NCBI RefSeq assembly: GCF_003334765.1
Contig: NZ_QOWT01000022.1
DNA: 64,000 nucleotides
Source of the DNA: Escherichia coli
Lineage (GTDB): Bacteria; Pseudomonadota; Gammaproteobacteria; Enterobacterales; Enterobacteriaceae
Reading direction: 5' to 3' (one strand)
Part shown: positions 54,098-57,521 of the stretch, one piece after another
Numbering within the stretch: the stretch's first letter is position 1
Layout: each line of letters begins with the position of its first letter
Notes under the pieces: generated by a model
Database searches by the model: none
What the model was told of the DNA's origin: nothing
Seen by the model: the letters and a program-made list of their open reading frames with translations, nothing else
Made by a program: the position numbers and the translations under genes

Positions 54098-54745
<648 letters not shown>

Positions 54746-54976
54746 ATCCATCGCTGATGGTGCAGAACTTTAGTACCCGATAAAAGCGGCTTCCTGACAG
54801 GAGGCCGTTTTGTTTTGCAGCCCACCTCAACGCACTTATTTAGTGCATCCATCTGCTATCTCCAGCTGATTAAGTAAATTTTTTGTATCCACATCATCAC
54901 ACAATCGTTACATAAAGATTGTTTTTTCATCAGGTTTTACGCTAAATAATCACTGTGTTGAGTGCACAATTTTAGC

Positions 54977-55095
54977 GCACCAGATTGGTGCCCCAGAATG
55001 GTGCATCTTCAGGGTATTGCCCTATAAATCGTGCATCACGTTTTTGCCGCATCTCGAAAAATCAAGGAGTTGCAAAACTGGCACGATTTTTTCAT
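54977..55095 (+). promoter_or_regulatory. glnHPQ control region: two NtrC-like sites and a sigma-54 promoter
   Basis: GCACCAgattGGTGC and ccagaaTGGTGCAtc; TGGCACgatttTTTCA at 55079-55094. Confidence 0.45.
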
Positions 55096-55133
55096 ATATG
55101 TGAATGTCACGCAGGGGATCGTCCCGTGGATAG

Positions 55134-55895
<762 letters not shown>

Positions 55896-56033
55896 TAACG
55901 CTACACCTGTAAAACGCACTGGCAGTTCCCTCTCCCCTATGGGGAGAGGATTAGGGTGAGGGGCGCAAACCCGCTCCGGGGCCATTAATTACCCTGAATT
56001 TGATTATTTACACCACGGTAACAGGAACAACAT

Positions 56034-56693
56034 ATGCAGTTTGACTGGAGTGCCATCTGGCCTGCCATTCCGCTTCTGATTGAAGGTGCCAAAATGACCC
56101 TGTGGATTTCGGTCCTCGGTCTGGCAGGCGGTCTGGTAATCGGATTGCTGGCAGGTTTTGCACGCACCTTCGGAGGTTGGATAGCCAACCACGTCGCGCT
56201 GGTCTTTATTGAAGTGATCCGCGGCACACCTATCGTCGTCCAGGTGATGTTTATTTATTTCGCCCTGCCGATGGCGTTTAACGACTTACGCATCGACCCA
56301 TTTACTGCGGCGGTGGTCACCATCATGATCAACTCCGGCGCGTATATTGCGGAAATCACGCGTGGTGCGGTGCTGTCTATCCACAAAGGTTTTCGTGAAG
56401 CAGGACTGGCGCTCGGTCTTTCACGTTGGGAAACCATTCGCTACGTCATTTTACCGCTGGCACTGCGTCGTATGCTGCCGCCGCTGGGTAACCAGTGGAT
56501 CATCAGCATTAAAGACACCTCGCTGTTTATTGTGATCGGCGTGGCGGAACTGACCCGTCAGGGGCAAGAAATTATTGCCGGTAACTTCCGCGCCCTTGAG
56601 ATCTGGAGCGCCGTGGCGGTGTTCTATCTGATTATTACCCTGGTGCTGAGCTTTATTCTGCGTCGTCTGGAAAGAAGGATGAAAATCCTGTGA
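56034..56693 (+). CDS. glnP: Glutamine ABC transporter permease GlnP
   Basis: 219 aa. Confidence 0.9.
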
Positions 56694-57412
56694 TTGAATT
56701 TAAAAACGTCTCCAAGCACTTTGGCCCAACCCAGGTGCTGCACAATATCGATTTGAACATTGCCCAGGGCGAAGTCGTGGTGATTATCGGGCCGTCCGGT
56801 TCCGGTAAATCGACCCTGCTGCGCTGCATCAACAAACTGGAAGAAATCACCTCCGGCGATCTGATTGTCGATGGCCTGAAGGTTAACGATCCGAAAGTTG
56901 ACGAGCGCCTGATTCGCCAGGAAGCAGGTATGGTGTTCCAGCAGTTTTACCTCTTCCCGCATCTGACAGCGCTGGAAAACGTCATGTTTGGCCCGCTACG
57001 CGTGCGTGGCGCGAACAAAGAAGAGGCGGAAAAACTGGCACGTGAGCTGCTGGCGAAAGTCGGTCTGGCAGAACGTGCACATCACTACCCTTCCGAACTT
57101 TCTGGTGGTCAACAGCAGCGTGTGGCGATTGCCCGCGCGCTGGCGGTGAAGCCGAAAATGATGCTGTTTGATGAACCGACTTCCGCTCTTGACCCGGAAC
57201 TGCGCCATGAAGTGCTGAAGGTTATGCAGGATCTGGCTGAAGAAGGGATGACGATGGTGATCGTGACCCACGAAATCGGTTTTGCCGAGAAAGTAGCTTC
57301 GCGGCTGATCTTTATCGACAAAGGCCGGATTGCGGAAGATGGCAATCCGCAGGTGTTGATCAAGAACCCGCCGAGCCAGCGCTTGCAGGAATTTTTGCAG
57401 CACGTCTCTTAA
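56690..57412 (+). CDS. glnQ: Glutamine ABC transporter ATPase GlnQ
   Basis: Walker [10 protein letters not shown]; 240 aa. Confidence 0.9.
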
Positions 57413-57423
57413 TAAGACACATT

Positions 57424-57521
57424 GCCTGATGCGCTACGCTTATCAGGCCTACAGGATATCTGGCAACTTATTAAAATTGCATGAACTTGTAGGACGGATA
57501 AGGCGTTCACGCCGCATCCGG
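57424..57521. repeat. REP/BIME element downstream of glnQ
   Basis: gcctgatgcgctacgcttatcaggcctac and gtaggacggataaggcgttcacgccgcatccggc. Confidence 0.6.

Follow-up and report, generated by a model that had tools for sequence, protein, structure and literature searches.

glnHp2, the nitrogen-limitation promoter upstream of glnHPQ in Escherichia coli, and the conservation of its weak -12 element

Relatives of glnHp2 and the glnHPQ locus

The glutamine ABC-transporter operon glnHPQ of E. coli is preceded by the sigma-54 promoter glnHp2, which has a well-described relative in glnAp2. Like glnHp2, glnAp2 is activated by phosphorylated NtrC (NtrC-P) from two strong sites more than 100 bp upstream and stands in tandem with an upstream, CRP-activated sigma-70 promoter (PMC1865078, PMC3870243). 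The two promoters differ in several respects. The NtrC sites of glnAp2, at -140 and -108, do not overlap (PMC1865078), whereas those of glnHp2 overlap and lie 13 bp apart; glnAp2 lacks an obvious IHF site and does not need IHF (PMC2709558), whereas glnHp2 has such a site; glnAp2 has extra low-affinity 'governor' sites (PMC3870243); and the -12 element of glnHp2 is weaker than that of glnAp2. With its upstream activator sites, a looped segment that holds an IHF site, and a sigma-54 core dependent on the IHF-induced bend, glnHp2 resembles Klebsiella nifH/nifU and Pseudomonas Pu (PMC2709558), although the activators there are NifA and XylR and the physiological signals are different ones. In Salmonella Typhimurium, the orthologous sigma-54 site of glnHPQ, TGGCATGATTTTTTCA, has the same TTTCA -12 element and is bound by sigma-54, and glnHPQ expression is 7.1-fold higher in the wild type than in an rpoN deletion. 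This site differs from that of E. coli by a C to T change at the sixth base of the -24 element, a change that is also common in the cross-genus set described below.

The closest system is E. coli K-12 glnHp2 itself, the downstream member of the tandem pair glnHp1p2 (PMC1865078), and what we found is the same element, with no difference in the finding itself. We analysed a 64-kb stretch of E. coli DNA (hereafter the window), in which the dps-glnH spacer (54746-55148) is 100% identical over its full length to that of E. coli K-12 MG1655. A 551-bp query spanning the glnHp2 region found matches in 5,422 of 5,426 complete E. coli genomes, annotated dps and glnH. The open reading frame list gives the gene order ompX (minus strand), rhtA, dps, glnH, glnP, glnQ and ybiO, and this order agrees with the RefSeq annotation of two identical or near-identical loci. 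The genes of the regulated operon are as follows.

55149-55895, plus strand: glnH, first gene of the regulated operon (open reading frame and RefSeq annotation)
56034-56693, plus strand: glnP, regulated operon (open reading frame and RefSeq annotation)
56690-57412, plus strand: glnQ, regulated operon (open reading frame and RefSeq annotation)

The original prediction, made from the sequence alone, had described the region as the nitrogen-regulated control region of glnHPQ. The K-12-identical spacer, the motifs and the published sigma-54, NtrC and IHF data all bear this out, and the comparison with characterised glnHp2 that it had proposed returned the same element, with a core 17-mer that is site OS06 of a sigma-54 ChIP-seq study. 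We conclude, with a probability of about 0.97, that this is glnHp2, from which the glutamine ABC-transporter operon glnHPQ is transcribed under nitrogen limitation, a promoter of the NtrC-enhancer type with IHF. With its NtrC sites, IHF site and sigma-54 core, glnHp2 has long been characterised and is already known.

Two side observations concern spacers within and behind the operon. The glnH-glnP spacer (55896-56033) is presumably the home of the published target of GlnZ, an NtrC-dependent sRNA that represses glnP by pairing close to the ribosome-binding site. If so, the operon would be under both NtrC activation and NtrC-linked post-transcriptional repression. The glnQ-ybiO spacer (57413-57672) is 260 nt long in the window and in K-12, and 116 nt long in strain 503025 (L001, 5714-5829); the difference probably reflects the presence or absence of a REP-type repeat.

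Promoter motifs, published binding data and a model of activation

The motifs of glnHp2 lie in the spacer as listed here; positions with a sign are relative to the glnHp2 start.

55079-55094, plus strand: sigma-54 core of glnHp2, TGGCAC-N5-TTTCA, TGGCACGATTTTTTCA, from -27 to -12
55106, plus strand: transcription start +1 (G) of glnHp2, accurate to about 1 nt
54976-54992, no strand assigned: NtrC (NRI) site, upstream member of the pair, CGCACCAGATTGGTGCC, two mismatches to TGCACC-N5-GGTGCA, centre -122
54989-55005, no strand assigned: NtrC site, promoter-proximal member of the pair, TGCCCCAGAATGGTGCA, one mismatch, centre -109
54963-54979, no strand assigned: weaker NtrC-like 17-mer, TGCACAATTTTAGCGCA, three mismatches, centre -135
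55060-55072, plus strand: IHF site, AATCAAGGAGTTG, a perfect match to WATCAANNNNTTR, from -46 to -34, between enhancer and core

Compared with the consensus TGGCAC-N5-TTGCW, the core has a perfect -24 element and the exact spacing of 10 bp from its GG (55080-55081) to the -12 element, where TC (55092-55093) replaces the consensus GC, with T55092 in the position of the consensus G. Both the location of the core and its weak -12 element, TTTCA rather than TTGCA, are as originally predicted. TTTCA is a known natural variant of the -12 element that is bound by sigma-54 in E. coli (PMC4591121) and in Salmonella. We placed the transcription start at 55106 from both ends of the PCR fragment described as '-289 to +63 of glnHp2' (PMC1865078), with primers at 54817 and 55168; site OS06, listed with a 'distance 44' (PMC4591121), would put it at 55105. 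A start at 55106 lies 43 nt ahead of the glnH ATG, and the position of the core suits both this start and the downstream gene.

Upstream of the core we found the two NtrC-type sites that had been predicted, which overlap by 4 bp and lie 13 bp apart. The NtrC consensus that we used for the palindromes is TGCACCAnnnTGGTGCA (PMC8743547). Two palindromes that fit it stand roughly 100 bp or farther ahead of the core, with their centres at -122 and -109. These centres agree with the values reportedly given for the glnHp2 NtrC sites by Claverie-Martin and Magasanik in 1991. The weaker 17-mer TGCACAATTTTAGCGCA is one more 13-bp step upstream of the pair; the stretch 54949-54975 is poorly conserved outside Escherichia (0.33), and a function of this third 17-mer is doubtful.

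Taken singly, these motifs occur at about chance frequency in the 64-kb window, and sequence alone would not prove their function. The window holds four matches to the sigma-54 consensus with at most one mismatch (3.44 expected), three NtrC-type 17-mers with at most two mismatches (2.83 expected) and eight matches to the IHF consensus WATCAANNNNTTR (2.9 expected). TGGCACGATTTTTTCA is its sole exact match to TGGCAC-N5-TTTCA, for which 0.05 are expected by chance. A composite of a core with at most one mismatch and at least two NtrC-type sites 40-220 nt upstream was found once in the window and in none of 300 windows simulated by a first-order Markov model, and the combination of core and paired NtrC sites exceeds chance. 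A separate sigma-54-like match, TGGCACGTGAGCTGCT, lies in sense orientation within glnQ (57036-57051). We rejected it as a promoter: it falls within chance expectation, and the sigma-54 ChIP-seq study does not name it in its main text.

Published experiments have established that sigma-54, NtrC and IHF all bind at this promoter and that it depends on the first two; our own analysis adds where the sites lie, how conserved they are and that their geometry is fixed. Sigma-54 ChIP-seq reported precisely the 17-mer CTGGCACGATTTTTTCA ahead of glnH as its site OS06, with a confirmed flag, and glnH is among only five genes with intergenic sites that rose upon sigma-54 overexpression (PMC4591121). In an rpoN deletion glnH went down 8.3-fold, with this promoter listed (PMC2831329), so that the sigma-54 dependence on which the original prediction hung is on record. 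NtrC ChIP-seq gave a peak with 74.8-fold enrichment that was assigned to glnHPQ, with direct binding cited. If that paper uses older K-12 coordinates, as we infer, the bin of the peak corresponds to about 55035-55115 in the window, 30-100 bp downstream of the palindromes and within ChIP resolution. Genomic SELEX found both the RpoN holoenzyme and NtrC in the dps-glnH spacer, and glnHp2 has been described as NtrC-P-dependent (PMC1865078). As for IHF, the bend that it induces is required for looping at glnHp2 (PMC2709558), and its binding at glnH was observed by in vitro footprint and by ChIP-qPCR (PMC8407004), with an amplicon that maps to 54998-55102 and covers the IHF site. A GeF-seq study reported IHF occupancy at glnH under its high threshold, and glnHp has been described as a weak, IHF-bound promoter (bioRxiv 10.1101/086108).

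In the activation model that best fits these data, in which glnHp2 works as a bacterial enhancer system, NtrB would phosphorylate NtrC when nitrogen becomes limiting, and NtrC-P on the overlapping palindromes at -122 and -109 would assemble into the active oligomer. RNA polymerase-sigma-54 would wait as a closed complex on TGGCAC-N5-TTTCA, and IHF at -46 to -34 would bend the intervening DNA to allow the activator to contact it. ATP hydrolysis by NtrC would then open the promoter, with transcription from 55106. The T in place of G in the -12 element would weaken the closed complex, such that efficient activation would need the IHF bend and the right helical face. That the weak -12 element is what makes IHF necessary is our inference from the work of Claverie-Martin and Magasanik in 1991 and 1992, which reportedly provides the basis for tying the two together at glnHp2.

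To our knowledge, no sigma-54 promoter works without an activator, be its -12 element strong or weak, and since this dependence is common to all of them the weak -12 element does not explain it. The original prediction had read the weak -12 element as fitting a promoter that depends on both an activator and DNA bending. Its second half agrees with the report of a weak, IHF-bound promoter, whereas its first half falls away as a universal property of sigma-54 promoters. Dependence on the IHF bend and a low basal occupancy are plausibly explained by the weak -12 element.

Conservation and geometry across Enterobacterales

For comparison we collected 120 loci from one-genome-per-species contigs, anchored by a degenerate coding pattern inside glnH. 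An anchor in the coding sequence is unbiased toward the promoter; the loci were oriented and their identity to E. coli GlnH was checked. A sigma-54 core upstream of glnH was present in 51 Enterobacterales loci, and its -12 element read TTTCA in 46, TTCCA in three and the consensus TTGCA in two, both from Rahnella (L072 and L053). In this set the non-consensus -12 element is conserved and no accident of K-12, and its weakness looks selected. An NtrC-type site started 88-91 nt before the core in 43 of the 51 loci, and a second one started 101-104 nt before it in 33. In Yersinia aldovae (L005) and Yersinia artesiana (L041), 275 and 133 nt separate the core from the glnH ATG, compared to about 70 nt elsewhere, which means that the leader has gained inserted sequence; the spacing from NtrC sites to core is unchanged in Yersinia (89 and 102 nt) despite the shifted core. 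In GlnH-like loci of alpha- and beta-proteobacteria and of Pseudomonas (52-70% identity, orthology uncertain), we found no core pattern within 420 nt upstream.

Column identity across the dps-glnH spacer was calculated for 30 Enterobacteriaceae aligned with MAFFT. No 16-mer of the spacer is better conserved than the core, which has a mean column identity of 0.95 (rank 1 of 388 windows) compared to a spacer mean of 0.53. The NtrC half-sites GCACCA and GGTGCA reach 0.95 and 0.93, and the IHF block AAAACAA-N4-TTG reaches 0.74, other genera being one mismatch from the consensus; the stretches between core, half-sites and IHF block fall to 0.2-0.4. Phytobacter (L115) and Pluralibacter gergoviae (L049) have a deletion of 10-11 bp between the NtrC pair and the IHF site and core, while the enhancer-to-core length is constant within 1 bp in the remaining Enterobacteriaceae. 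A deletion of this size is about one helical turn and would fit looping in which both distance and helix face matter.

The transcribed leader and the far end of the spacer hold three further features.

55106-55148, plus strand: leader of glnHp2, with a small GC hairpin and the Shine-Dalgarno sequence AGGA at 55139-55142
55112-55128 (extendable), plus strand: leader hairpin, stem GGGG (55114-55117) with UCCC (55122-55125), variable loop
54783-54818, no strand assigned: dps terminator, strong hairpin with a fold z of -3.81, then TTTTGTTTTG

Leader column identity is 0.82 among the 30 Enterobacteriaceae, above most of the promoter. The E. coli leader by itself folds unremarkably (z = -1.5, or -0.24 when the beginning of the coding sequence is included) and covariation in the hairpin is minimal, with a compensatory change in one of four pairs within Enterobacteriaceae; given this fold and this single pair, we stop short of calling the leader a structured regulatory RNA. 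GC hairpins with unrelated stems stand at the leader position in several loci of Pantoea, Mixta and Erwinia (L038, L102, L059, L099), with z from -2.3 to -4.0 for the Erwiniaceae hairpins, and the leader hairpin is absent in Serratia, Hafnia and Rahnella. A consensus terminator scan of 54600-55300 missed the dps terminator. An Rfam search of 54500-56200 at a permissive threshold placed ctRNA_p42d (26.9 bits, gathering threshold 50) and STnc70 (19.2 bits, gathering threshold 40) on this terminator; both matches were chance-like and were discarded, and a literature search for STnc70 returned STnc700 only.

glnHp1, further NtrC-like elements and rival explanations

Upstream of and within the classical promoter region lie the tandem promoter glnHp1 and two more NtrC-like elements.

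54883-54955, plus strand: glnHp1, tandem sigma-70 promoter upstream of glnHp2 (CRP site from the literature, hexamers read from the sequence)
54883-54904, plus strand: CRP site of glnHp1, ttgTATCCacatcaTCACAcaa (sequence and position -61.5 from PMC1865078)
54919-54924, plus strand: -35-like hexamer of glnHp1, TTGTTT (read from the sequence)
54943-54948, plus strand: -10-like hexamer of glnHp1, TAAATA (read from the sequence)
54831-54847, no strand assigned: distal NtrC-type palindrome, CGCACTTATTTAGTGCA, a candidate site with its centre at -267 from glnHp2 and -116 from glnHp1
55018-55035, no strand assigned: conserved TGCC...GTGCA (TTGC...GTGCA) block flanked by the NtrC pair and the IHF site, TGCCCTATAAATCGTGCA, centre about -79

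With the CRP site at -61.5, the start of glnHp1 would be at about 54955, which would place the NtrC pair at +22 to +51 of glnHp1. The blocks of glnHp1 are conserved at 0.68-0.74 among the 30 Enterobacteriaceae, and weak E-sigma-70 binding has been reported there (PMC1865078). A sigma-70 consensus scan of 54600-55300 found no strong promoter at glnHp1; the scan also missed the dps terminator and is thus uninformative on glnHp1.

The distal palindrome, which was absent from the list of sites in the original prediction, begins 13 nt past the dps terminator, upstream of glnHp1. Its GCAC-N7-GTGC is retained in essentially all 30 Enterobacteriaceae, whereas the flanks are not. In other genera the palindrome is nearer the consensus, with no mismatches in Superficieibacter (L008, TGCACCTTAAAGGTGCA), and in 27 of the 51 loci it lies 247-250 nt before the core. 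Across Enterobacteriaceae it keeps fixed distances of 145 and 158 bp from the known pair. Within the block at about -79, column identity is 0.95 for GTGCA (55031-55035) and about 0.88 for TTGC. The block may be an NtrC-like site of low affinity whose spacer is longer by 1 bp, comparable to the 'governor' sites of glnAp2. A full-text literature search for the site sequences found the core 17-mer only, in two papers, the distal palindrome and the NtrC pair not being printed, and the literature searched contained no mention of the distal palindrome (-267) or the block at about -79.

Could the motifs be a chance cluster, with glnHPQ driven solely by the sigma-70 promoter glnHp1? Each single motif is at chance frequency in the window and a CRP-activated glnHp1 does exist (PMC1865078), but the composite arose in none of the simulations and no 16-mer is more conserved than the core, so that we give this explanation virtually no weight; it is already refuted by sigma-54 and NtrC binding in vivo and in vitro and by the rpoN dependence of glnH. 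Slightly less remote, but still highly improbable, is a genuine sigma-54 promoter that owes its activation to some enhancer-binding protein besides NtrC. Cross-activation of sigma-54 promoters can occur, and a promiscuous DctD variant turns on Salmonella glnHPQ. However, the palindromes fit the NtrC consensus, NtrC was bound in both ChIP-seq and genomic SELEX, and in a synthetic system glnHp2 was not cross-activated from a distant upstream activating sequence (bioRxiv 10.1101/086108).

A third explanation is that the NtrC sites serve mainly as operators that block or loop out glnHp1, the activation of glnHp2 being secondary. NtrC blocks glnAp1, which is the model for such a role at glnHp1. In line with it, the NtrC sites lie downstream of the presumed glnHp1 start, the architecture of the glnH promoter has been called very similar to that of glnA (PMC3870243), and a conserved NtrC-type palindrome is located at -116 of glnHp1, with the result that both sets of sites bracket this promoter. 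Against it, the literature searched yielded no data on repression of glnHp1 by NtrC, and the site-to-core spacing is fixed even where leader length varies, which argues for selection on the activation geometry. We consider this explanation rather unlikely, and the operator function would be an additional role more than an alternative to NtrC-dependent activation of glnHp2, which we prefer.

The distal palindrome, the -79 block and the leader hairpin are hypothetical functional elements. In combination with the pair, the first two could enable NtrC-P to loop out glnHp1 and silence it while activating glnHp2. Alternatively, they could contribute an extra dimer to the assembling oligomer or play the 'governor' part known from glnAp2. 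It is a tentative suggestion, to which we assign well under even odds, that the classical description of glnHp2 is incomplete in that it leaves out roles of the distal palindrome and the -79 block; a -12 element that is kept weak by selection is a separate part of this suggestion.

Enhancer-type activation and IHF-assisted looping have a model system in glnHp2, which several genome-wide datasets have confirmed, and its recognition here has little discovery value; what the check does show is that the original prediction got all of its elements right from sequence alone. The comparative gain is modest: conservation extends to the weak -12 element and to the enhancer-to-core distance. Beside glnHp2 stand two more conserved NtrC-like elements of putative function, at -267 and about -79. 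If the T of the -12 element is under purifying selection, the promoter would be kept weak, which may enforce its dependence on IHF and helical phase and may block cross-activation.
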